Shown here: positions 3,001 through 47,857 of the stretch, piece by piece
Layout: every line of letters begins with the position of its first letter
How positions within the stretch are numbered: position 1 is the stretch's first letter
Assembly: GCA_009602725.1 (NCBI GenBank)
Contig: WELB01000007.1
Span: 1,134,336-1,182,192 of the forward strand
Length of the DNA stretch: 47,857 nt
Direction: 5' to 3'
Source: Spirogloea muscicola
Lineage: Eukaryota
Translations under genes and position numbers: made by a program
Notes under the pieces: generated by a model
The model's input: only the letters and a program-made list of their open reading frames with translations
What the model was told of the DNA's origin: nothing
Database searches by the model: none

Positions 3001-3279
3001 CTACCACAGTATCTGGGAGGCCAGCAGCATGCAGCAGAGGTATGCAACTTGACTGTTGGCAGGGGCAGTTGACGACCTCGAGTACTGACAGCAGGTCTGC
3101 TCAACACACTGCAGGGCTTTGCACGCAGTCAAGAGATTGACCTCTTTGGGGAGGTAGCTGGCATCTCCTTCAGTCCCGACTCCGAGGCGCTGTATGTAGG
3201 GGTGGCAGACCGCACGTATGGCTCATTGTTGGAGTTCAACCGCCGCCACAACTATACCTTCCGGGATTCTTTCATATGA
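1..3279 (+). CDS. WD40-repeat protein (uncharacterised plant/fungal C2A9.03-like family), multi-exon, 5' end outside window
   Basis: Spliced exon peptides: DTNAAQARQGKDIQGIPWESLHFTRDKYRENRLQQYKNYENL (~285-450), KSTIVHFQ, LRNLVWATSKHDVY, VMSSNNDSMVRVFD, HTSVSPDGKLVLVVGD, LEGHLDYSFASGWHPDGHIFATGNQDMTCRLWDLR, QEIDLFGEVAGISFSPDSEALYVGVADRTYGSLLEFNRRH...SFI* (stop 3277-3279). GT-AG boundaries are visible. Family name is from recall. Confidence 0.88.
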
Positions 3280-4340
3280 AGGAGTTTATTCTGAACTTGT
3301 GGTCACGGGCTGCCCTAGGCACTTACAGTGTAGTAGTGCAGGATCTCCGTCCGTAGTGGCCTCATTCACGCTGAGAGCAAAGGCAGTGAGCAGCAAACGG
3401 CAGATTGCAGTCTGAACTGTACACTGTGAAGTTGGTATTTGCATCTGCATATCTGGCCAAGTCGTCGTACGGCAAGCACGACCTCTTGGAGCATCATGAC
3501 TCCTCTACTGCATTGGAGGACTATACTTGGAGGTTAGTACTGTGCATGGTCAGTTGCTCAGGAGATTGCTCATGGGTACGCCTCGGTGATGCCAAAGGCA
3601 GCTGGAGCTTCTCGGCGTTGCTTGGTCGGTGCAGCACATGCCTCTATCATGTGGTATGTAGGGCGTGCAACATGGGGGACTGAGGATTGTGGACAGTGGG
3701 AGGACGGTGCAACGGGAGGAGCGACGCAAGATGTGATGGACAAGATAGCCCGCAAGAGAGCAGCGGCTGGCAAGCTGATCATAAATGAAGTTAAATGAGC
3801 GCGCAGTGACATTGGACTAGCCAGATTCACGGTGGATGTGCCTGCGGGCAAGCTTCAGGTGGACTACGGTGCTGCAAGCTCAAAGTCCTGCCACCTCCAT
3901 GAAGCTTAAAGTGAGGCAACTTCACAACTTTCGCTTGGACTCTCCCTGGGATCATAGATTGCAGGGAAAGCATGGTTGGCAGTAGTGATGGCAGTAGCTT
4001 GTGACATACAACGGACGACTGCTCAGGGCACTTGGCAATGATCTTATTAGCGTCCTGATATCTGTTGGCGTAAGCATCAGTCAATCATCAATCAGTTGCT
4101 CGACAGTACAAGGTGTTCGGTATCATCAGCAGATTTTCGTCCTGCTCGTAAGCCACAAGCTGCCCACCGACTGCCGCGGAACCAGTCGGGCCAGATGCTG
4201 GGGGAGGGAGGACTGTCAGTCGCCATGGAAAGAGCGCAGCAGCAGCAGATAGCGGGTCGAGGCCAAGGAGATCGAGCTCGAGGCGGGCCTGTGTCTAACG
4301 CCCATGTGTCTGCCGCATGCGCCTCGTGTGGCTTTCGCCA

Positions 4341-5184
4341 GAAGAAAGTGCTCTCCTAGCGGAGGTAGAGGCTGGGAAAGGCCAGCCCAAAAAGGATAGA
4401 CAAGGTCCGAAGAGCCGAGAGGCGCCTAAAGCCACACAACTAGACACGAGACAACTGCAGAAGGAAGCCTAGTAACCACGGGTGAGCAGCAGCAAGTCGG
4501 AGAAACTCGCAGCTGGGGAAGAGGCACCCCGCCGAGAGCCAGATGGAGCAGCCATGGCGCGGTCTGCTCGCAAGTGAGAGAGAGAAGGGCTCGCCCATTG
4601 AGGATAGGGGCTGGGGAAAGCCAGCGCAGGAAAGAATGAGCGAAGTGCGAGAAGGGGCCAGGGGAAGCACTAAGGAAGACGAGCACGAGAAGAAGCTGAG
4701 CAGCTACGAAGCACTTAGTAACCCCTGCTAAGCAGAAAGTGGCACTCCCAATGGAGGCAAGGGCTGTGAAAAGCCAGCCCGGAAAAGAATTGACAAAGGT
4801 TCGAAGGGGCCAAATGATGGAGGGGCCTGAACAGCGCTAAGCAGCTACGAAGGGGCCTGAAGAAGCTATGTCAGAACGGGGGAGGATGGACCAGTCAGTA
4901 GTTACGAGTGAGGAGCCTCAAATCCGACAGACCAGCTGCCCCAGCGCTAAGCAGCCTCAGGTGGACTGCAGAAGTAGAGCGCGCCCATAGAAAAGAAAAA
5001 GCTGCAGAGAGCTGGAGAGAAGAGCGCGCCCTTAGAAAAGAGGGGCTGGCAAAGCCAGCCCAAAAAAGAATGGACAATGTCCAAAGCCAAAGCAAGAGGA
5101 GCCGGAGAAAGGACTACACTACAACATACTGCAGAACACAGAGACGATGCAGAGGAAAGCTCAGTACCCACGAGTGAGCTGGAG
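4341..5184 (-). mobile_element. Cluster 1 of nested 5'-truncated RLE (CRE-like) non-LTR retrotransposon 3' ends
   Basis: Four ORF-terminal segments ending (L)L(T/S)R(G/N)Y* (stops near 4469, 4715, 4895, 5161), each followed by a 3' UTR with the GGGCTGGC..CCAGCCC hairpin. TSDs gctaagcag (4727-4735/4946-4954) and gagctggag (5009-5017/5176-5184). Near-identical copies elsewhere in the window (4736-4940 vs 13235-13440; 5020-5180 vs reverse complement of 46580-46740). Confidence 0.85.
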
Positions 5185-5589
5185 GAGCGAGCTGCCGCTG
5201 CCTCCGGGCCACAGGCGCCAGTCGGGAGCGAGCGGCCGACGTCTCCGGGAGGCCGGCGGCCGCCACGGGCCGGCCGGCCACCCCCGGGCCGGGCGCCGCC
5301 GACAAAACCCTCCGGGCCGCCAGCGTCGGGCGGCAGACCGTCCGGGAGGCCCGGCGGGGAATTCGGGCCCCGGGGTCGAGTCGGAAGTCCCCCGCGCTGG
5401 ACGCGCCGCCGACCCGGCGCCGAGCGCGCGGCCATGGCGGCGGCGGCGGTGGCGGCGGCGGCGGCGGGCACGCAAAAAGCTGGCTCCGATCCAGGTTCTT
5501 GAACCCTAGGGGTCGTGCAGGAAGCCCTTTTCCGGAGGCCTCCGAGAGCCGCCATGGCGGCACCGGCGGCGGCGGGGGCGGCGGTGGCG

Positions 5590-5591
<2 letters not shown>

Positions 5592-5680
<89 letters not shown>
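5592..5680 (+). repeat. 89-nt poly(A) run ending at a single-N contig join
   Basis: Seen directly. It follows a GGC-rich tract and abuts the N at 5681, so it is probably an assembly or read artefact. Confidence 0.8.
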
Positions 5681-5681
5681 N

Positions 5682-8554: not shown

Positions 8555-9306
8555 TCAGAGCTTGGAGGAGGACACGATCACGCCGTCGGCGTCGGCGTAG
8601 AGCCACTCGCCGGGCCGCACGGGCACGCCGGCGACGGCGACGGGCACGTCGGCGGCGCCCTCGCCGCGCTTGAGCGACTTGACGGGGTGCGGCGCGAGCG
8701 CGCGGACGCCCAGCTCGCAGGCGTCGATCTCGGCGGTGTCGCGGACGCAGCCGTGCACCACCACGCCCGCCCACCCGTTCTTCTCCGCCAGCACCGCCAG
8801 GCTGCCGCCCAGCAGCGCGCAGCGCAGGCTGCCGCCGCCGTCGACCACCAGGACGCGGCCGCCGCCGGAGCCCTCCAGCGCCGCACGCACCAGCGTGTTG
8901 TCCTCGAACACCTGCGCCCCCCCAGCCAGCGCTCGCATCCCGGCAGACCATCAGGCCATCATACTACTCGAGCTGCCGCAAAGACCAGGACGACGGCTGG
9001 ACGCACGTCAGTGGCGTCCCAGCTCGCCATAGCCCGCCGCCACCGTCGCCGCCGCTTCCGGCACTAGTGGGATCGACGTTTCAAGGAGCACTGCGGGATA
9101 CTGAGGCCCGAGCACTGGCGGAGAGCCGGGGCCCTGGCGAGCCGAGGGGGTTTCCGGCGCGGCGGGCCGACCTTGAGGGTGCGGACGGGCCCGCAGAAGG
9201 CGGCGCGGCGGCCGTAGGCCCGGAAGACGGGCGGCAGCGCGCGGAGCTCGCCGCTGGCCAGCGCGCCCTCGTGCGCGTCGCACAGGTCCGTGGTCGCCAG
9301 CCTCAT
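8555..9306 (-). CDS. RraA-like / 4-hydroxy-4-methyl-2-oxoglutarate aldolase, 2 exons (9306-9172, 8911-8555), ~163 aa
   Basis: [11 protein letters not shown]...[22 protein letters not shown]...[17 protein letters not shown]...[14 protein letters not shown]...[15 protein letters not shown]. Canonical GT-AG intron 9171-8912 in phase 0. Confidence 0.93.
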
Positions 9307-13100: not shown

Positions 13101-13861
13101 GGTTGTCTTCCTGGGCTAGTTTTATACAGCCATCGCCTCTTCATGGACAGGATTGCTGTGTAGGGGCAGAGGGCCAGTGGCGACAGTGGCATGGGCGGGA
13201 GAGGGCTCGCTTGAAAGTAAGCCTCTTCCAGTAGAAGTGGCACTCCCAATGGGGGCAAGGGCTGTGAAAAGCCAGCCCGAAAATGAATTGACAAAGTTTC
13301 GAAGGGGCCAAATGATGGAGGGGCCTAAAAAGCGCTAAGCAGCTACGAAGGGGGCCTGAAGATGCTATGTCAGAACGGGGGAGGCTGGACTATTCAGTAG
13401 TGACGAGTGAGGAGCCTCAAATCCGACAAACTAGCTGCCGGAAAACTATCCCCCTGACGAAAGCCGGAGGCCGCAGCGAGAGCACGGCCAGCACGCAGAC
13501 GCAAGGCGTGGGCCATGGACCGCTGAAGGGAGACGGACAATCGCGTACGATATACCTAAGCCCACGAGCCAGCGGAGGGCGATGGCTGTGTTTCCCTAGC
13601 TCAGAAAAAGAGGGAACAGCTTTCGAGGGGCCAGGCAATCACTAACGAAGCTCAGGAGGAATTTTCATGTACTGCAACAATCGAAGTCCAAAGTGGCCAC
13701 GTACTGAGAGGGAATGAAGTGTACTAAGAGATCGAGGGCCTGTGTGGCCAAGTACAAAGGCAAGCACATTGAAATGAAACGGCTGCTGAGCGGCTGTGAA
13801 AGCCAGCCAGATGCAAACAGGTTTTTATGACGGAGCCACAGGCTAGGCAGACAGGGCGCTC
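13101..13861 (-). mobile_element. Cluster 2, part a: stacked 3'-end remnants of RLE retrotransposon families
   Basis: 13235-13650 is the same family as 4736-4945 and encodes ...RLSVSLQRSMAHALRLRAGRALAAASGFRQGDSFPAASLSDLRLLTRHY* (stop 13394). 13780-13860 is the UTR shared with 23580-23670. There is a degenerate plus-strand hairpin end at ~13101-13160. Confidence 0.8.
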
Positions 13862-15283
13862 TTAGTAACCCCGTGTCAGCAGTAGGAAGTCAGATGAGCT
13901 GAGGGGAGAAAGAGCAACCCCGCTGCGCAAGCCAGAGGCTGCTGCAAGGGCGCGACTTGCGCGGCGATGCAAAGCAAACGCTTGGGACCGCTGTAGGGAC
14001 ATGGATAAACGCATGCGATTGCAGGACACAAGACCAAAAGGCACCGAGCCACCGGGAAGGGGTGTACCCTGTTCCCGGCGCTGCTGGTCAGCTTGAGATG
14101 CCAGCAGCGAAAGTAACGAGTACCACCGACCCCCGTAACACCCATGGATGTCCATGGCCAGGGGGTAAAAGGCATCACCCGCCGGGTGGTCCTTGTACTT
14201 GTGCATTTTCTACTGTTCGGCCACCTTCACGGCATAGCCGGTCTCAGAAGTCACAGGGCCCTTCGTCCAGAAGCTGTCGGTTAGGACGACGTCCATGAGA
14301 AGCCGCTTGCCACCTCCCAGGGGTTCATTCTTTTTTGGGCCGGCTTTGCCAGCCCCTCTTCTCTATGGGCGCGCACTTCTCCCAGGGGGACGCCAATTAG
14401 ATCGACACGCCGCGTCCAAGGGACCCCGTTGCGGAGCTGGACGGGCATCACCCCGGTGCTCTCCGCCGCCACTTGATATCCCGCCTCCTTGACGATGCCA
14501 TACTTGGCGTCACGTAGGAAGTGTGGGAGACCGTGCGCTCACTTCCTTTGGCACACCTGAGCATGTGGTCACCCATGAGCACTGCATCATGCTCAATAAG
14601 CCCACCTTCACATTGGGTCACCCCTGCCAAGCACAGGGATGGTAAGCCAAGACGGCGGCGCATACCATCGCAAAACAAAGCATTTTCCATCCGCAAGCCC
14701 GCAGGCAAAGGCAAAGCGCGGAGCCACTCAGACGCTCCCAGAGACGAAACAGATAGGAGTCGAGCCTGGCCTCGAGCATCCCCTTGGAGGAGACTCCGAA
14801 GATGCTCCAGGTTGCTCGTCTGCAGCACAGGAAAACCGCGATTGAGCCTTAACATCAGAAACGTCAGCCCAGGCAGCAAAACTAACAGGCTCATTCACCA
14901 GAGGCGGGTATGCGGCAAAGAGGTCCTGTTGGCATGCTTTGAGAGTCACTTGGAAAGGCAGACTCCCCTGAACCACGTTACTGATGTGAGGCGCCAATAC
15001 ACGACGTTGCTCAAGGAGGAATCGTCCAGATATGGACGAGGCCACCTGAGCCCAGCAGCCAAGGTACGCTGGTCTGCATAAGCGGACCAAGGGGCGACAA
15101 CCAAGCCCACCGTGACGTATGGGCGAGCAAGCGCGGCCAGATTAACTGGTGGCTGGGAGAGGCCAGGGATGGGCAGCGTACATTGCACCAGTGCTGCTGG
15201 AGACTGCTCTAGGAGTGGGTGAGCAATCAGATCAGCAAGGCATTGCTGAAGCTTGACATCAATGGATGCATAGACCTCATCCA
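13862..15283 (-). mobile_element. Decayed CRE-like RLE non-LTR retrotransposon: C-terminal ORF region (post-RT segment, Zn-knuckle, restriction-like endonuclease), cut by the gap
   Basis: After removing two mini-insertions the frame reads QCTLPIRHGGLGCRPLVRLCRPAYLGCWAQVA ... QARLLSVSSLGASEWLRALP...MRRRLGLP...CEGG...DHMLRCAKGSERTVSH ... RRVDLIGVPLGGGKRLLMDVV...AE Q*KMHKY...FYPLAMDIHG...RLSMSLQRSQA...LLLTRGY*. Frameshifts and one in-frame stop are present. Clade assignment is from motif recall. Confidence 0.85.
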
Positions 15284-15638
15284 NNNNNNNNNNNNNNNNN
15301 NNNNNNNNNNNNNNNNNNNNNNNNNNNNNNNNNNNNNNNNNNNNNNNNNNNNNNNNNNNNNNNNNNNNNNNNNNNNNNNNNNNNNNNNNNNNNNNNNNNN
15401 NNNNNNNNNNNNNNNNNNNNNNNNNNNNNNNNNNNNNNNNNNNNNNNNNNNNNNNNNNNNNNNNNNNNNNNNNNNNNNNNNNNNNNNNNNNNNNNNNNNN
15501 NNNNNNNNNNNNNNNNNNNNNNNNNNNNNNNNNNNNNNNNNNNNNNNNNNNNNNNNNNNNNNNNNNNNNNNNNNNNNNNNNNNNNNNNNNNNNNNNNNNN
15601 NNNNNNNNNNNNNGCCGCTGCCGCCTCCAGCCGGCGCC

Positions 15639-18600: not shown

Positions 18601-19068
18601 ATGTTTGCGTCCTCTGGCACTGCGCTGCCGCCGCCGCCCAACTGGCAGATGCAGCAGCCACTGCAGCACCTGGAGGCGGCGACAGCGTTGCAGGCTCACC
18701 AGAGCGGCAGCTCAGGGGCAGCACTGCAGCCGGCGGGAGGGGCAGGGCCGTCACTGTATGCGGCCCAGTTTGCAGGCCCGCCCCGGTTGCAGCAGCAGCA
18801 GCAGCAGCAGCAGCAGGCGCAGCAGCATCAGCAGGGGCCTCTTCCGCCTGCCACCGCAGCTCCCGCCAGCGCGCTGCAAGGCTTCCAGGCAGGCTCGGCG
18901 CCAGCACCTCTGCACTCGGCGGCCTTGTACCCGCCGCCGCCACTGCCGCTGGCGCCGCAGCAGCAGCCGCTACCAAGGCCAGGCATAGGGATGGCCGCAG
19001 CACCAGCGCCGGTGCAGCTGCCAGCCGACCAGCTCGCCCAGCTGACGGCGTTGCTTACGCAGAGGTCT

Positions 19069-19148
<80 letters not shown>

Positions 19149-19830
19149 GCCGCAGCAGCAGCAGCAGCAGCAGCAACTGCAGCAGCAGCAGCAGCCGCAG
19201 CCGCCGGTTGTGCCCCAGCCGAACCCACTGCAGCAGCTGCAGCAGCAGCAGCAACTGCAGCAGCAGCAGCTGTATCAGGGGGCTCCTGCTACGGTCCCCC
19301 CGCAGCAGCCAGCACAGGCAATGATGATGCAGCAACCCCAGTACAGGGGACCACCCCAGCAGTACCAGCAATACCAGCAGTACCAGCAGCATGCGATGCA
19401 GCAGCATCCGCTACAGCAGCATACGGTGCAGCATACGCAGCCGCCGCCACAGCAGCAGCTAGCCTCGGGCACGAGCAGTGCCTGGGATCAGCAACAGCCG
19501 CACCACCAGATGCCGCGACCGACACAGCCGCAGCAGCAGCAGCAGCAGCCACATCCACAGCAGCAGCAGCATAACGCCGCCACTTTGCAGGCGGCGCAGC
19601 ATCAGCAGCAGAATCAGCAGCAGCAACAGCAGCAGCAGCAGCAGCAGCAGCACCAGCAACAGCAGCTCGTACAAGCAATGCCGCCGTCGCAGCAGATGTT
19701 GCCTGAATCGTCAGGGGCAGAAGGGGATGATAAGTCAGAAGCAGAAAAGCAGAAGCGTTTCCAAGCCACATTGCAACTTGCTGCCGCACTCCTCCAGCAG
19801 ATGCAGCAGCAAAAACCGGCTGGGACATGA
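15639..19830 (+). CDS. FPA: FPA-like Spen-family RNA-binding protein (RRM + SPOC + Q/P-rich tail), multi-exon
   Basis: RRM PTEVLWVGFP...FAVFGELERIRAFPGRTYAFVQF...LEGKLFNDARVHIKYS. SPOC domain WFGSVAKGGVHVCKAR...|PDVIDCRARTDL...YEEFVQYLGEKRRAGVGELADGSTLFLVPPSDFAQVVLKV. FPA-type C-terminal helix KRFQATLQLAAALLQQMQQQ. The true start may lie in the upstream gap. Confidence 0.85.
19069..19146 (+). repeat. (CAG)26 coding trinucleotide repeat within a larger Q-rich region (~18790-19810)
   Basis: Uninterrupted CAG run seen directly, in frame in ORF 17752..19830. Confidence 0.9.
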
Positions 19831-21619: not shown

Positions 21620-23870
21620 TTAGAGAGATGGGCTCGCTTATAGAGGATAGGGGCTGGGAAAGCCAGCCCAGTTAAGAATGAACAAAAACCAAAAGTCCTT
21701 AGGATGGCATAAGCCAACCTTTCATATGACGAGCGGCGGACTTAGCCGCAAGCCTTAAGCAACGCCCCGGCTCAGACTCAAATGGGTGATGACTTCTTGA
21801 TGGTGAGGAGTATCATCGCCATCAGGCTCAGGTACACTGTAGTGAGCAACCCGGCGAACGAACTCCCTGGCGTGTAGTCATATGCTATGAATGCGCCATG
21901 AGCCTGTTGTCTGTTGGACGAGAGCATCAATCTGGAAGGTGTAGCAGTGGAGACGAGGAAGGAAGTGGTCTTTCTAAAGAGGTGGCAAGTTGGTGTAAGA
22001 AAATGTGTCAAGTGAGCGAGAAATTGAGGGAGATGGAGGAGATCTTCAAGTAAAGAGGGAAGGCGCGCAGTGTGCATAGGATGAAAGGAGGCCAACCCGA
22101 GTTTAGGTAACAAGACGACAGCAAAGCTGGAGGGGGACCTCAGTACCCACGAGTGAGCACAGACAAAGCCGACAGGCTAACTTGGGGAGCCGGAGCACCG
22201 CCACAGAAGCCAGTGGCCTGGCTAAGACACGCCCAGCACGCTGGTAGATTGCCAATGCTTGAAAGCTGCAGACAGCGAAAGCCACCTTTTGTGACATGCA
22301 ACTATTGCGTGCGGAATCCTAGACTGCACAAAGCTGCCCCCCCAGCTGCGGCGACGCGAATCAACCAGCTGGGCCAGATGCTGGAGGAGAGAGGACAAGG
22401 TTAACGGCGCCATGTGCATTCTTCCCATAAGGCAAGTACAAGGTTCTGAAAGGGCCCAAGTAAACAGCTCTTTCAACGCAAGGCAATGGCTGTGAGAGGC
22501 CAGCCCACAGAAAGTGAGCTCCTCCAAAGGGGGCGGGGCTGTGAAAAGCCAGCCCAGGAAGAACTGACAAGGTCCAATGGGCCGGGTGGCGCCAAAACCG
22601 CCCAGCTATGCAAGAGACTACAGCGGATGGGAGCTTGGTAACGAGTCAGCGTCGTAAATCGGAGTAACTTGCAGCTGGAAAGAGAGAATGAGGCACCTGG
22701 ATGAGACCCAGAATTGGCAGCCACAGCGGGGTTGCCCACAAGTGTACCGTGTGAGCTTGGGAACGTTGGAGAAAGTTTGGCTCTCTTGGAAGGAGACAGG
22801 TAGCCGCATGCGGAACACCTGGGCAGGCGACCTGGCGGCGTTGAAGCCGGGCAGCTCACCTTGCGGTCCCTGCCGACGATCGATGGCCGGCCGTGTAAGT
22901 CGCTGCAGGAGGTGCACTGAGCTCTTCCACAAAGAATTGACAAGGTCGAAGGGGCAGAAAAGCGCTGAAACACCGAGTAAACAAGTACCATGTAGGAGAA
23001 GCACTTCCAAAAGCCAGTCCAGAAAAAATGGGCAAGGTCCCCAGTGCCGAAAGGGGCTGAAAGCACACTGCTGTGCGAGAGACTACAGCGAACGGGAGCT
23101 TCGTGACACACACAGCCGTCCCCCTCTACTGGAAGAGTCTCTCTTCATAGTAAGCCCAGAGCCCAAAGGAATGAACAAGGTCTGAGACCTGAGAGGGCCG
23201 AGAGGCGCAAACAAACACGAATCTATTCTCCGTGATTTTTGTGCGAATGACGCTCAACCTCTGGTCAGCAGAGTGCAGTGATCGGAGTAAGGAGAAAATT
23301 TCTGCTACTGCGGAGTTACTAGGCTCCCATTCGCTGTAGTCTCTTGCATAGCTGTGTGGTTTTGCCGCCTCTTGGCCTTCTCTTGGCCCAGGGGGAAGAA
23401 GAGAGAAGCGCGGCCAGATTGACTGGTGGCTGGGAGAGGCCAGCCCAAAGAAATGGACAAGGTCTGAAGGAGCCGGATGGCGCAAAAAGCAAGGTACTAA
23501 GAGGGAAAAATGCTTCCAACAGAAGCTTCTCTTTTTCCCAGAGGGCGACTGCTGTGCGAGGCCAGCCCAGGAAGGAATGCGGCTGCTGATACTGAAAGAG
23601 CGGCTGTGAAAACCAGCCAGATGCATACAGGTGGTCTTGACGGAGCCACAGGCTAGGCAGACAGGGCGCCCTAAGATGTGCTTGCCTTTGTACTTGGCCA
23701 TTTGGCCTTCGTTTGTTTCAAATACACGATATTTCTCATAGTACCCGCGGGTCAGCACCAGGAAGGCAGCGCTTGCTCGAAGTCAGATGAGCTGAGGGGA
23801 GAAGGCGCGGGCGGTGCGCATGAAATTGAAAGGGAGGCCAGTTCTAGCCTTACAAATGTCCTGTTCACTG
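21620..23870 (-). mobile_element. Cluster 3 of nested RLE retrotransposon 3'-end fragments (several families, mostly minus strand)
   Basis: Hairpin ends at ~21650, 22490, 22540, 23430, 23550 and 23600. ORF-terminal segments at 22140-22410 (same family as 47268-47520), 22637-22900 and 23740-23800. TSDs ccaca (22505-22509/22927-22931) and gaag (23762-23765/23779-23782). Confidence 0.82.
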
Positions 23871-24456: not shown

Positions 24457-27400
24457 CGGCCGCCGCGGAGGGCCGCCCGCCGCCCCGGACGCTGCCGCTG
24501 CGAGAGCGCAGCGTGCCGGCCACCCCGTGGGCTCGCGTCATGGGGTGAGCCCCCGCCAGACGGCGCGGCACGGGCTTGGCAGTGCGCCGATGGCCGGTCG
24601 TGCGCGCGCTCTGCCGAGCATGGATCAGGGTCCAGGCTTTAAGGTTTTAGGGTTTAGGGTTCGAACGGGCGGACGTGCTTGGCGGGTGCGGATGGTGCCC
24701 CACGGCCGCGGTCTCACCGGCGCGCTGCCTGGCTTGTGGCGGCGCCCCAGCCAGATTCGCGGGCTTGGGGGCGGACCTGGCGCTGGGCACCCTCCAGGAG
24801 TCGGCGCGGCGGCTCCTGGTGGGCACCGGCAGCGGCGGCGAGGGCGCCGGGCGGGCGTTCAGCGCGGCGCTCACGGAGCGCAACGCGGAGCGGCTGGCGC
24901 TGGCCCTGTGCCGCATGCGCGGCGCAGCGCTCAAGCTCGGCCAGATGCTGAGCATCCAGGACGAGGCCATCTTCCCGCCTCAGGTGATGTGGTGGCCTGC
25001 GCCAGCAGCACTTCTACGCCGAGGCCCGAGCCTGTGCCCTTTGACGGCTTGACAAGTTGCAGATCCAGATCCGGGGCGATTGTGGATCATATTACTGCAT
25101 GCTGTAAGCCAAGAGGCCGAAGTATGTCATGTGGGCGTTGTCTGGTATACAGTTCTGGTGAGCTTGTTAGATTCAGTCAAAGCACGCTGGCAATCACTGC
25201 AGCTGCTGTTGATAATCTAAAAGCACTAGAGATCATGCAGACTTCCTCTCCGGCTGCCCTTCCTTGTCTTGTGCAACAAGGGTTGGTCTTTTTGCAAACA
25301 GAGTTGGTCTTTCTGAATGCCCTTTGAGAACCTGGTCTGCATGCACCCTGCTCCGCAGATCCTGCAAGCACTGGAGAGAGTAAGGGCTGGCGCGGACGCG
25401 ATGCCTCGGCGTCAGCTGGAGCAGGTTCTGACGGCGGAGCTGGGCCCGGAGTGGAGAAGCAAGCTGGCGGACTTTGACTTCGTTCCCATGGCAGCTGCCA
25501 GCATCGGGCAGGTCACTGCACAGGCCGCTCTGGGATAGAATGTCGGGTCGCATGAGCACGAACATCGAAGCACCAGGTCATGTTCTGACGTTGCAAGCTA
25601 ATGCACACAGAGCACTGCACAGGAGCAGATGTGCAATCCAGGAGAAGTGCATGTCTGCAACTTTGCATTTTCGCTTCGCAGACATTTCCTTATTCCAGCA
25701 GCAACAAGGAGTCCCTGCTGAACCTCTCGTGAGATGCTGTGCTTAGTGCTACTGAAAGTTGGAGAGCTTTCCTCCTGCCAGATGTGTCTAGCACACATGC
25801 TGGGGAGGCCGGCGGCTGAGGCAGGTGTGGCTGATGTGGCCATGGATCCTGGCGAGTTGACTCTGCCAGGTGCACAGGGGGGTGATGGCAAGCGGGCAGC
25901 ACGTGGCAGTGAAGGTGCAGTATCCGGGGGTGGCTGACAGCATCGAGAGCGACATTGAGAACCTCAAGCGGCTCTTGCGCTTCACCAACCTTGTGCCCAA
26001 GCAGCTGTACCTTGACCAGGCTATGAAGGTGAGCATCTTGCAGCTGCGTGCAGCACAATCATCCACTCCTCTTGCCATTGGAGCGTTCCTCACAACGACG
26101 GGCATTTGCTAATGGAAAAGGCTATACGTCCCAGGTTCTTGGGTTGGCTTCCTTGACTTCGCAGCATGGCCATGCGCTGAGCTGCCTCCATTCCTGAGCC
26201 CACAGTCACGACTGACGGCAGGTAGCCAAGTCTGAGCTAGCCAGGGAATGCAACTATGTGGCGGAAGCGGAGAGCCAGAAGCGGTACCAGGCGCTGATGA
26301 AGGGCGAGCACGGTTATCACGTTCCTGACGTAATAGACGAGCTCTCAAGCCGGCGCGTGCTCACCACCGAGCTGGTTCCAGGTGAGCAGCTGAGCCTCCT
26401 TTATGCTGTGTAAGGGTCAAGCTGTCTGAGGGCGAGATATTTTGTCCTGTCAAGGTTGGACTTCAAACGGAAATTTGAGCAGATTGTCAATCTCAACCTC
26501 TGTGTGCCCAGCGTGCAGGTCTGACCATTGACAAGGTGGCGAGTCTTGGCCAAGACGTCCGGGACAGCGTAGCAGAACGTCTTTTGAGGCTCACCCTTCG
26601 AGAATTATTTGTCTTCCAATTTATGCAGGTGAGCTTCAGCCTGTGCTTCAGGTGCTTCACAGGTGGCCCTGGTTAGCTGCCGGTGCCTTGAGAAATGGCA
26701 ACTCAGCTTCTTAGAACAATTAACATGCTCCCAAGCTGCAGCCTGTCATCCTTGCGCGAGTGTGTCATTTCTGGTGGATATTTCTGGCCTAGAACAGAGC
26801 CCTGATAATGGAAGAATGAGTTTGGACATTCTAAGCTCTGTACTTGCCGAGTAGGTACTGACTGGTGACCTCAGCTGTGCCTCTGCCGTGTTGCACATTG
26901 ACAGACGGATCCAAATTGGGGCAATTTCTTGTATGATTCTGAGACTGACACGATCAACCTCATCGATTTTGGTGCAGCGCGCAACTATCCTAAGCCATTC
27001 ATTGATGACTATCTGCTCATGGTAGTCACATACTGCCTTCAGCACTTTGACATCATGCATTTTATGATACGAGACCGGCCATAATAAAGTCCTGGGCAAA
27101 TAAACCATGGCATCACATTGCAATATCCAGGTCTAGTACCTCCCCTGCATGGAGCAAATTTGACCTCTGGTCATGATTCCTTTCCTAGGAGCTTACTCTT
27201 TCTGACAATACAGGTCTTGATAGCGAAGCAGCGTACTGTGCAGGTGCGAGCATGTGCTGATAGAAACGGAGACAAAGTCATTGCGATGTCAAGGCGACTG
27301 GGCTTCCTGACTGGCGACGAAAGTGAGGTGCTGCTCGACGCCCACACGCAGGCGGCCTTCATGGTTGGCTTGCCCTTCTCCAAGCTGGGCAACTTTGACT

Positions 27401-44569: not shown

Positions 44570-45790
44570 TTCGGTCTCGTTGACCAAAATAGAAAGAGCT
44601 CTTCCAATGTAAGGCAGTTGCTGTGGTTTAGGAGTCCAAAGGAGTGCACAAGGTCTGGAAGGGATACAGCCCTTGCCCCCTTTGGGAGAGCCACTTTCTG
44701 TGGACCTTGTATGTAGTTTCTGGGCTGGCTTATCACAAAGAAGACGTTCCGGAATGGTGGGCTCATGTGCACCCCGCTCGATGGTCAGGAAGAAAGAATG
44801 GCTGTCCCAAAGGACACGAGGGCTGTCATAAGAAGAAAGCGCGGCCCAATTGACTGGTGGCTGTGAGAGGCCAGCCCTTCGCACTCCGACTCCTTCAGAC
44901 CTTGTCCTTCCAGCCCCTATCCTCAATGGGCGAGGCCTTCTCTCTCAAGGGCAAAGGGGGCAAGGGTTGTGAACAGCCAGCCCGAAAACCAAATTGACGA
45001 AGTCCGAAAGGGGCCAAAAAAGCGCTGTCTCAGAGCTGGGGTATGATGGATGACTTGGCAACCACGAGGAAAGAGTATGGAAGATGTACAAAGTTTGAAG
45101 GGCCCAGAAAAGCGTTAAAGACCTCTGTATGCCCCTTCGGACCTTGTCATTCTGCTTATCACAGCCCTCGCCCCCTTAGAAAGAGCTCACTCTTCGCATG
45201 TGTCAGCCTGTTTGCAGCGAGCTCAGGCTCATGCTTTGCACCATAAAGCTGGTCAAGCCTTAGCTTGTGGCACAAAAGCTTGTCAACTGCCGTCCGGTTT
45301 CCGGGCATCAGTCAACGCCCTCGATGTGCGCTCTGGCGGTCTCGGTCCAATGCTCCCTTGCCTACGCCGTCCACATGCGAGCAGGCCGTGCTATGGCTGC
45401 CGCCTCTGGGTCTCGGCGGAGTGCCTCTTTCCCTGCAGCGAGCTACTCCGACCTGAAATTGCTCACTCGCGGGTACTGAGCTTCCCTCTGCATCGTCCTG
45501 TATTTTGTAGTGTTTTGAGGTATAGTCCTTCGGCACCTCTTTCTTTGGCTTTGAACATTGTCCATTCTTTTTGGGCTGGCTTTGCCAGCCCTTCTTCTCC
45601 GTGGGCGAGCACTTTCTTCTTTCTGCGCCATCCGGCTCCTTCAGACCTTGTCCGTTACTCTGAGGTAAGCGTGGCCACATTGACTGGTGGCTCGGAGAAG
45701 CCAGCCCAAAACACTACAAAAAGAACAAAGGACGAGAAGGGGCCAGGGGAAGCACAAAGAACAACAAGCACAAAAAGAAACGAAGCAGCT
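44570..45790. mobile_element. Cluster 4, part a: mixed-orientation stack of RLE retrotransposon 3' ends
   Basis: Hairpin or terminal motifs at ~44665, 44720, 44860, 44910, 44970, 45160, 45575 and 45690. Plus-strand ORF ends SACLQRAQAHALHHKAGQALAC (~45200-45270) and SLAYAVHMRAGRAMAAASGSRRSASFPAASYSDLKLLTRGY* (stop 45477-45479). Confidence 0.8.
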
Positions 45791-45799
45791 ACGAAGCAC

Positions 45800-46890
45800 T
45801 CAGTAACGCCTGCTAAGCAGCCTCAGGTCAGAGAGACTGGGTCGGAAGCGGGTCCCCTGGCCAGAGCTAGAGGCAGCACAGAGAGAGCCCTTCAACCGCC
45901 GCCTCGTTCACGACATCGATATTTCCTAACGATCCCCCTTCGCCGCCATCCCCCTGCGCGCACGGCGGCGGCAGCAGCGGCAGCGGCGGCGGCGGAGGCG
46001 GCGACGGGCCCGCCGCCAAGCGCGTCCGCGCCCAGCTGGATGGGCATTGTTGAGGTGTTTTCCACAGCCTCCTTGAAGCCCGCCTCCCCTGCATGCCATC
46101 TCGCAGGAGATCGTGGGAACCGGTCCGCTCGCCCCCGTGCGCGCAACGGAGCATATGCGCAGCCAGCTCCGCAGGGTCGGCGTGACGGACACCACACTCG
46201 CACTGTGTGACGCCCACGAGGCAGGGAGGGAGGAGGCCAAAGAGCCGGTGGACCGCCGTCCTGAAGACCTCATCGGGCATGGTGAGCGCCGCGTAGAGTG
46301 GGAGCGCTGATAACCACGCCGCCGCCCTGGGGGAGGAGGCTGAGAGAAGCCGGGCGCGCCCGCGAAGGTCAGACGGAGGGAGAAGCTCCACGACCTGGTC
46401 AGAGGCCGCTTTTCCAACCAGCGCCGTGAAGCGTGCCTGGGGGTACGCAGGTCAGGGGTGCGGGCGAGGTGGACGAAAGCCCTCGCCGTCCACATGCGAG
46501 CAGGCCGTGCTATGGCTGCCGCCTCTGGGTCTCGGCGGAGTGCCTCTTTCCCTGCAGCGAGCTACTCAGACCTGATGTTGCTCACTCGTGGGTACTGAGC
46601 TTCCCTTCGCATCGTTTCTGTGTTCTGCAGTGTTTTGTAGTGTAGTCCTTTTCCTGCTCCTCTTTCTTTGGCTTTGGACATTGTCCATTCTTTTTTGGCT
46701 GGCTTTGCCAGCCCCTCTTCTCTATGGGCGCGCACTTCTCTGACGAAAGGGACGGCCTGCTCCGACACGTTGAAGCAAGCGCGGCCAGATTAACTGGTGG
46801 CTGGTGGTGGTGGCTCCGACACGTTGGGGTGGACCGCCAGGAGCCCGTCGCGGGCAGAGCGGAGGGCAAACCTGCAAGGGCAGCTGGGCA
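45800..46890 (-). mobile_element. Decayed CRE-like RLE retrotransposon fragment (Zn-knuckle region) carrying two nested insertions
   Basis: RARLLSASSPRAAAWLSALP...FRTAVHRLFGLLPPCLVGVTQCECG...AHMLRCAHGGERTGSHDLLRD aligns by eye with the peptide at 14500-14800. Insertions with TSDs at 46472-46749 and 46759-46826. Confidence 0.85.
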
Positions 46891-47100
46891 GAAAGCAAGG
46901 TACTAAGTGCTGAGACGGCAGCAAGGGGACTCTCAGTAAACGTCTAGTCAGTAGATACAAATGGGAATAGGTAGCAGGCGGATAGACGCTAAAGAAACGG
47001 TGTTAAAGGAACAGCTCTTCCAATTCACAAGTGAAAAGCCAGCCCGAGAAGAGTTGACAAGGCCGAAAGAGCAAGCGCGGCCAGATTAACTGGTGGCTGG

Positions 47101-47857
47101 GAGAGAGAGAGAGAAAGAAGAGTGCGCGCCCATAGGGAAAGGCGCGCGGGGCGCATGAAATGAAAAGGGAGGCCAATTCAAGCCAATACACAGTTCAAGC
47201 AGAGGCGAGTGCAAAGTAAACAAGGCTACATAATATAGAGACCTAAACTAGGGTGCCTAAGGTGACATTAGTACCCACGGGAGAGCACGAACAAATCGGA
47301 CAAGCTGACTTGGGGAGCTGGAGCGCCGCCACGAAAGCCGGAGGCCCGACTTAGAGCGCGCCCTGCACGTTGATGAAGAGCGGCTTGCGAGCGCAGCAAA
47401 CAAATCGAGAGCCGCATTCTATAGTATGCAATTAAGGCCTGTGGAATGCTGGAGTGGCCCAAGCTGCCCCCCCGACTTTTACGACGCGCATCAACCAGCC
47501 GGGCCAGATGCTGGATCAGAGAGGACCATTTCAAGCCGTAGCCGCCATAGATATCCATGGCACACGGGCAAAGATGGTCCCCTCGGGGATGGTCCTGGTA
47601 GTGCCGCTCCTTCTTGCGCTCCGCGCTGGACGTGGCCCAGCCAGACACGGTTGACGTGGGTGTGCCAGCCTTGTATGCGTCGATCAGTACCACGTCCAGG
47701 AGCAGACGAGGCCCACCGCCCCGGGGGGTGGCGACCACGTCCAGACGCCGCACGTATGGCTTGCCGCGCCTGAAGGAGATTGGCATGATGCCGGACACCT
47801 CCATCGCCGGATGATACCCCGCCTCTCGCAAAATTCCAAACATTGTATCCCTGAGTA
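47101..47857 (-). mobile_element. CRE-like RLE retrotransposon 3' part (endonuclease domain, stop, 3' UTR, (TC)n tail), continues beyond window
   Basis: ORF 47268..47843 ILREAGY...E...RRLDVVATP...LLLDVV...AERKKERHY...PCAMDIYG...RMRLSICLLRSQA...LSRGY* has the PD-(D/E)xK RLE layout. The UTR ends ...CGCGCGCCTTTC(TC)n near 47101. Confidence 0.88.

Follow-up and report, generated by a model that had tools for sequence, protein, structure and literature searches.

The stretch of Spirogloea muscicola DNA analysed here (the window, 47,857 nt in length) carries a nest of retrotransposon 3' ends between the end of a WD40 gene and a GC-rich stretch that precedes the next likely gene. The WD40 gene was recognised by a Pfam match (WD40, E 3.5e-10) at 2572-2868, and its last exon likely ends at 3279. 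The GC-rich stretch contains an 89-nt A run ending in N (5592-5681), which is likely a gap filler; the N gaps at 15284, 24098 and 41486 likewise lie in or near GC-rich DNA. Further along the window, an intronless RraA-like gene occupies 8555-8950 on the minus strand (Pfam PF03737, E 3e-38), a long CAG-rich coding stretch at 19060-19700 specifies polyglutamine, and about three degenerate plant-type telomere repeats lie between genes at 24636-24662, with one such word near 5503.

Anatomy of the nest

The nested pieces, here numbered as units, consist of the end of an ORF, a 3' UTR and a TC tail, and are truncated at their 5' ends. Within the nest all five have the same orientation, on the minus strand, which bears out what had been read from the sequence alone. 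The host of the nest, unit 1, ends with its TC tail at 4341, and its main part (4341-4576) comprises a 3' UTR of about 130 nt with a stem-loop, a stop near 4470 and the last 35 codons of the ORF. It is 70-73% identical to three window copies and matches a C-terminal profile at 4472-4576 (E 2e-20), the profile itself having been built with the unit 1 peptide included. Unit 1 continues at 4964-4972, where it aligns with intact relatives, and at 5009-5017, and its final recognisable bases are found within 5176-5189. Unit 2 sits in unit 1 between the two copies of a 3-nt repeat (4574-4576 and 4961-4963), and is itself split into a 3' part (4577-4735, with tail, UTR, stop near 4716 and last codons) and a 5' stub (4955-4963, ending in the right repeat copy) that is identical base by base to 45821-45828. 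Between these two parts, three codons before the unit 2 stop, lies unit 3 (4736-4945, 210 nt), flanked by a 9-nt repeat (4727-4735 and 4946-4954); it follows the family sequence as far as 4940 and then has 5 extra bases. Unit 4 (4973-5001) is made of 24 nt of family terminus and 5 A-rich bases, and is flanked by a 7-nt repeat (4966-4972 and 5002-5008). Unit 5 (5018-5175, 158 nt), which belongs to a young high-copy subfamily, also sits in unit 1, and is flanked by a 9-nt repeat whose left copy is the unit 1 segment at 5009-5017 and whose right copy lies at 5176-5184. The Russian-doll nest proposed by the sequence-only reading is therefore real, and its hosts rejoin, but its depth is three rather than five: units 2, 4 and 5 are siblings in unit 1, units 4 and 5 interrupting neither each other nor unit 3, and unit 3 alone lies in unit 2. 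Once unit 1 is emptied, the sites of units 2, 4 and 5 fall 34, 36 and 38 codons before its stop, all within 21 bp.

All four repeat pairs occur at the coordinates first given for them, around inserts of 384, 210, 29 and 158 nt. With words drawn from the window, the chance of a repeat pair within 13 start positions is 1.5e-4 for a 9-mer, 1.4e-3 for a 7-mer and 0.20 for a 3-mer. The GTG duplication around unit 2, two of whose three nucleotides are also the element's own next bases, is thus as weak by itself as had been cautioned. The rejoining of the hosts is a stronger test than the repeat pairs themselves. First, the removal of units 2, 4 and 5 leaves one open frame across all three sites; the unit 1 that results can be aligned over the unit 2 and unit 4 sites with the copy at 46484-46741 (74 of 91 positions identical) and resembles the copies at 22510 and 45622 as far as about 5189. 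Second, unit 2 emptied of unit 3 matches, as claimed, an uninterrupted relative that has the empty site (45665-45877, minus strand): 129 of 170 positions are identical against 45662-45828, as are 27 of the last 28 columns, which run straight over the unit 3 site. For unit 1 itself, no flanking repeat was established.

It had also been proposed that the insertions would fall if the supposed target-site duplications were already internal to the family sequence, and this is found in part. Besides the overlap at unit 2, the first 4 of the 9 nt in the right repeat copy of unit 5 are the element's own next bases, and the repeat word of unit 3 recurs inside unit 3 at 4836 and in a relative of unit 3 at 13334. 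The unit 3 insertion stands despite this internal word, because the host matches for 8 more bases past the repeat. The 14-mer at the right junction of unit 3 (4942-4955) is identical to 4832-4845 inside the unit, and its 5' junction looks like a locally templated join; published accounts of how LINE 5' ends are joined describe both microhomology and extra bases with a local template (PMC4760211; PMC4245944). In units 3, 4 and 5, the last 2-3 nt of the repeat match the purine-rich complement of the element tail.

The first reading overlooked an older remnant just left of unit 1, on the same strand (4136-4228). This decayed piece of the same family, unit 0 (4136-4340, minus strand), derives from the nuclease-coding region and adjoins unit 1 in the same orientation. 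It is matched by nhmmer at 4136-4228 and 4145-4214 (E 0.0018 and 0.0006), and its extension to 4340 is gapped and weak (131/216). A continuation of unit 0 beyond the nest was looked for and none was found. We rejected the reading that unit 1 had inserted into unit 0, flanked by 6 nt repeated at 4336-4341 and 5216-5221: the supposed continuation was no better than shuffles, 1838 of 2000 of which reached its score, and the 6-mer match has a 2% chance in that stretch.

Units 4 and 5 might stem from one event, either by aborted priming and re-priming 9 bp away or by later local duplication of the unit 5 end, which would bring the number of events behind the nest down from five to four. We regard this as somewhat unlikely. 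Unit 4 belongs to the same sub-lineage as unit 5 (24/28 against the 46741 copy), the two have in common two diagnostic bases that differ from the copies at 46741 and 14378, they lie 9 bp apart, and 4966-5001 and 5002-5045 resemble an imperfect tandem pair. A plain duplication, however, requires that one copy, although the element is young, lost 9 nt and underwent about four further changes. Moreover, a contig that its bin depths assign to another locus exactly matches 4978-4996, so that the sub-lineage exists elsewhere and could supply two inserts. The claim of repeated independent insertions holds as far as later insertions into earlier copies are concerned; given the two diagnostic bases that unit 4 shares with unit 5, it does not extend to five surely independent events.

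Identity and age of the family

The family is a high-copy LINE with a C-terminal restriction-like endonuclease, of the R2 group. Its 3' end is fixed (12 hand-picked 3' termini align) and its copies measure 29, 40, 44, 55, 158, 210 and 262 nt, and up to about 1.5 kb. Fixed-length SINE or MITE elements and intron-type elements were rejected, because the lengths vary and the pieces run into an ORF. A conserved 3' stem-loop structure was rejected as well: a stem of 6 bp was predicted for the 12 termini, yet none of its 6 pairs shows a compensatory change, so that the prediction is no evidence of structure. The longer window copies (13700-15281, 45665-46471 and 47100-47857) carry the same C-terminus upstream into the nuclease and zinc knuckle. 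The longest open stretch of the family ORF (47268-47855, minus strand), which identifies the family, runs from the restriction-like nuclease through the stop and holds the signature E-x17-RxD-x14-D...KxxxY; the knuckle, C-x1-C-x12-H-x3-C, lies at 45867-46451. The window ORFs for knuckle and nuclease align with residues 809-1088 of the database relative P0015 (E 3e-17 to 2e-13), downstream of its reverse transcriptase (RVT_1 at 358-558, E 6.6e-19), and the short unit 1 peptide matches the same protein at E 0.01. A full HMMER search with P0005 returned 402 proteins at E <=0.001, and RVT_1 was present in 17 of the 21 long relatives scanned. The RT domain is known from these relatives alone, there being none in the window, and Pfam gave nothing relevant on any of five window peptides.

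The word-indexed search found eight relatives, 61-77% identical, all of them EukProt gene models with SM0000 ids, which we take to be models of Spirogloea muscicola, a zygnematophyte alga. Such searches returned only models of this one organism (these eight matches, and three in another query) or nothing, and a PDB search gave no match under E 1. Among ten relatives looked up for names, nine were unnamed and one was a 'hypothetical protein'. The eight closest database proteins are gene models wholly or partly built from LINE pieces. Models P0001-P0008 and P0021 are made of, or fused to, several LINE pieces, likely by annotation contamination, P0006 being fused to a WD40 protein. Two other models deserve mention: in P0009 (755 aa) an 81-aa unit of the family's nuclease end is repeated about nine times in perfect tandem, as either an element-born satellite or an assembly artefact, and P0122 joins an RT to a ubiquitin C-terminal hydrolase (Pfam UCH, E 1.6e-57), possibly as a LINE-protease fusion or a fused gene call.

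An RT followed by a C-terminal CCHC knuckle and a PD-(D/E)xK-type nuclease, in one ORF, is the layout given for the R2 group in the accounts we drew on (PMC3636483, PMC5678591). The Spirogloea family has this order of RT (in the relatives), knuckle and nuclease, together with a fixed 3' end, variable 5' truncation and target-site duplications, the last being a feature of the CRE and R4 clades. Set against the SLACS/CRE motifs as presented in PMC12857005, the order and the nuclease spacing fit, whereas the knuckle has 12 residues from the second C to the H and a further spacing of 8, against 7-8 and 9-10. Individual residues also depart from the SLACS/CRE pattern, with S for R before HD/N and L for P in R/KPD. 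The nuclease and knuckle motifs resemble those of the CRE clade, and the designation 'CRE-like' is a lead suggested by this resemblance. The literature on zygnematophyte algae, searched outside Repbase and most subscription journals, yielded no description of the family, which is possibly undescribed.

Identity to the best window relative rises from the outer to the inner pieces: from the 70-73% of unit 1 to 76% for unit 2 (against 45665-45828), 93% for unit 3 (against 13232-13439) and 92% for unit 5 (against 46580-46741). The depth of single contigs, relative to single-copy contigs of the same run, is about 1x for unit 1, 11x for unit 2, 14x for unit 3 and 135-245x for unit 5, ratios that are rough, come from single contigs and are not copy numbers. 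An order in which the outer pieces are older and the inner ones younger is consistent with later insertion into earlier copies. Together with the full-length RT protein alignments, it upholds the original view of the pieces as retrotransposon 3' ends and of the nest as the product of such later insertions.

A distinct subfamily is found mostly as termini of 40-50 nt (15125-15168, 23395-23446, 44830-44877, 45664-45710, 46773-46812 and 47066-47100); some of its copies are 100% identical over 31-37 nt, and they are very short, recent inserts. The copy at 47066-47105 has a long (GA)n end and begins inside the stem-loop of the preceding short copy, in a GA-rich loop, an arrangement that fits tail-target pairing; no right-hand repeat was found for this copy.

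Target sites, orientation and assembly support

We placed 25 termini in the window by hand, eight of which have a flanking repeat of 3-14 nt at the expected place. Six of these repeats, of at least 7 nt, came from a scan, a 3-nt and a 6-nt one were added by eye, and other candidates of at least 7 nt were discarded on visual inspection, being internal to homologous sequence or distant from the end of a copy. The 3-nt repeat is that of unit 2, against 6-14 nt for the others. Four of the eight inserts make up the nest, and the other four lie in two long copies. In the first of these, a 55-nt copy (14324-14378, plus strand) is inserted ANTIPARALLEL in the nuclease region, antiparallel to its host and with a 10-nt repeat, and a 44-nt copy (15125-15168, minus strand) is a parallel insert with a 6-nt repeat found by eye. 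In the second, a 262-nt copy (46480-46741, plus strand) is inserted ANTIPARALLEL in the linker region, again antiparallel, with an 8-nt repeat, and a 40-nt copy (46773-46812, minus strand) is a parallel insert with a 14-nt repeat. Same orientation is thus no general rule of insertion in the window, where two of the eight repeat-flanked inserts are antiparallel. Nor are the sites restricted to the last ~50 codons, as had been suggested: the four nest sites do lie 3-38 codons before the host stop, but the four other inserts are in the linker or nuclease region.

Half of the repeats (four of eight) end in a tail-matching AG, AGA or GAG, with P 0.002 against the AG frequency of the window and P 0.011 against that of the element strand; the other four have no AG end. 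AG on the family's priming (antisense) strand outnumbers AG on the coding strand by a factor of 2-3 (298:111 for short copies and 233:121 for long ones), so that a 70% bias towards parallel insertion is expected. The six parallel and two antiparallel inserts agree with this prediction, yet they do not differ from 50% (P 0.29). That three sites should share 21 bp of a host 265 bp long has a probability of about 0.013 under uniform insertion, by a post hoc hand calculation, and a simple AG bias leaves this clustering unexplained; if units 4 and 5 had a linked origin, most of it would vanish.

The same clustering inside unit 1 could instead reflect true self-targeting, in which the nuclease or RNP would favour a target within the ORF end of its own family and insert in tandem like Cnl1 or Zepp. 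It is also in line with this that all eight repeat-flanked inserts lie within family copies, but that sample is biased, the clusters being where the search looked, and the family's four intergenic clusters together occupy about 16% of the window, so that nesting would be common by that alone. Of 111 contig joints, 15 were shown, and in 8 of these the body of one copy passes into the 3' terminus of another on the same strand, with sides of 20-37 nt; this counts for self-targeting and is a weak hint that such nests are widespread. Two gene models on other scaffolds, P0001 and P0002, hold several same-direction family C-termini, weak support given that the models are spliced. Self-targeting is improbable, in our judgement, with two of eight inserts antiparallel, with sites that are scattered between the linker region and a point 3 codons short of the stop and share no motif beyond AG, and with a setting in a gene-dense stretch and at no chromosome end.

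A faulty assembly, joining dispersed high-copy repeats into what looks like the right half of the array, is very improbable: although the region borders a poorly assembled stretch (the A run and N at 5592-5681), very close relatives of units 3 and 5 exist elsewhere and the 14-mer at the right junction of unit 3 is repeated within it, mis-joins switch between homologous positions and would not yield flanking repeats and an in-register host at four sites, and the inside-younger age order and the same insert anatomy at four other window places also speak against it.

Public contigs from four runs of one sample, probably the assembly's own and thus not independent, bridge the left junction only. 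They cover 3900-4670 at single-copy depth and span 4340/41 in all four runs with no mismatch. The junction of units 1 and 2 is crossed by contigs with just 26-30 letters on the right side, against a criterion of 31. A contig at 4699-4735, of about 11x depth, departs from the window sequence after 4735, as uninterrupted relatives of unit 2 would; in two of the four runs, none of the contigs listed at 100% identity crosses 4735/36, and the bin depths of X1 leave no room for one. Bins 4950-4969, 5010-5029 and 5190-5260 are uncovered in both of two runs and 5188-5560 in all four, gaps that carry no inference: the records were filtered, rare routes from one high-copy repeat to the next are lost in contigs, and DNA rich in GC is prone to drop-out. 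An empty allele of the locus appeared in none of the 15 joints shown of 111, nor in any of three at 100% identity.

Insertion mechanism and known nested LINEs

The locus is probably a three-level nest of five 5'-truncated LINE 3' ends. It was likely built up by target-primed reverse transcription on four or five separate occasions, in intergenic DNA that tolerates inserts, and priming by the TC-rich tail likely took place at AG. The process would involve 1) nicking by the nuclease with little sequence specificity; 2) pairing of a nicked strand ending in AG with the TC-rich tail of the RNA; 3) reverse transcription that would halt early, after 24-270 nt; 4) sealing of the 5' end by 2-4 nt of microhomology, as may have occurred for units 2 and 5, or with a few extra bases, as for units 3 and 4; and 5) retention of the inserts, the spot between the WD40 gene and the GC-rich stretch presumably being neutral. 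Parallel nests could accumulate in this way without true self-recognition, because the priming strand of old copies offers AG 2-3 times as often and the host would lose nothing by inserts in such copies.

Nested arrays of 5'-truncated LINEs are already known in algae and fungi, as Zepp and Cnl1, and the locus is in that sense an ordinary phenomenon. Cnl1 of Cryptococcus, which is grouped with CRE1/2, SLACS, CZAR and MoTeR in one account (PMC12857005), is described in another as having many 5'-truncated copies and inserting within earlier ones to form nested tandem arrays (PMC9942834). The likeness lies in a REL-type LINE whose truncated copies are nested in its own earlier copies. The arrays of Cnl1, however, lie in subtelomeres and are said to be tandem by preference, whereas the Spirogloea nests are small and intergenic, mix several subfamilies (70-93% alike) and include antiparallel inserts. 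The counterparts in Coccomyxa and Chlamydomonas are Zepp and ZeppL; clusters of nested LINEs are reported from a green alga (PMC3446292), and Zepp is given as L1-type (bioRxiv 2022.06.16.496473). The Spirogloea family differs from L1-type Zepp in its C-terminal restriction-like nuclease and TC tail, and it forms four small clusters in 48 kb where Zepp has one large, probably centromeric cluster per chromosome. The tail of Zepp is poly(A), and its successive insertion, in work by Higashiyama of 1997, is said to leave 3' ends in the same direction. We do not class the locus as a strict self-targeter, because both the uniform tandem orientation and the chromosomal confinement of Cnl1 and Zepp fail here: two of eight inserts are antiparallel (those with 10-nt and 8-nt repeats), and instead of subtelomeric or centromeric arrays there are four small clusters between ordinary genes, such as the WD40 and RraA-like ones, in 48 kb.

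Target-site duplications are reported for all known CRE elements in the account consulted (PMC3636483), and the family resembles the CRE clade (CRE1/CRE2, SLACS, CZAR, MoTeR, FoTeR) in having these and a single ORF whose RT, zinc knuckle and nuclease follow one another as published for the clade, at distances close to the published ones. CRE elements are mostly specific for spliced-leader genes or telomeres, whereas the Spirogloea family occurs at varied sites. One might go further, on doubtful ground, and see here an undescribed, recently active, very high-copy CRE-like LINE family of the land plants' algal sister group. Such a family would have lost strict site specificity, its TC tail would pair with AG-rich strands, and its own antisense strand would be a favoured landing pad, giving small dated nests across gene space. 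It would then occupy a middle position, with the site-specific CRE elements on one side and Cnl1 and other strict self-targeters on the other.

A single locus matters little alone, nested LINE stumps being already known. Nests of this kind supply a relative chronology of LINE subfamilies, and the LINE pieces contaminate gene annotation. Hundreds of short junctions would let the target rule of a LINE with a restriction-like endonuclease be read from one genome, and that rule is relevant to the ways in which R2-group elements acquire and lose site specificity.
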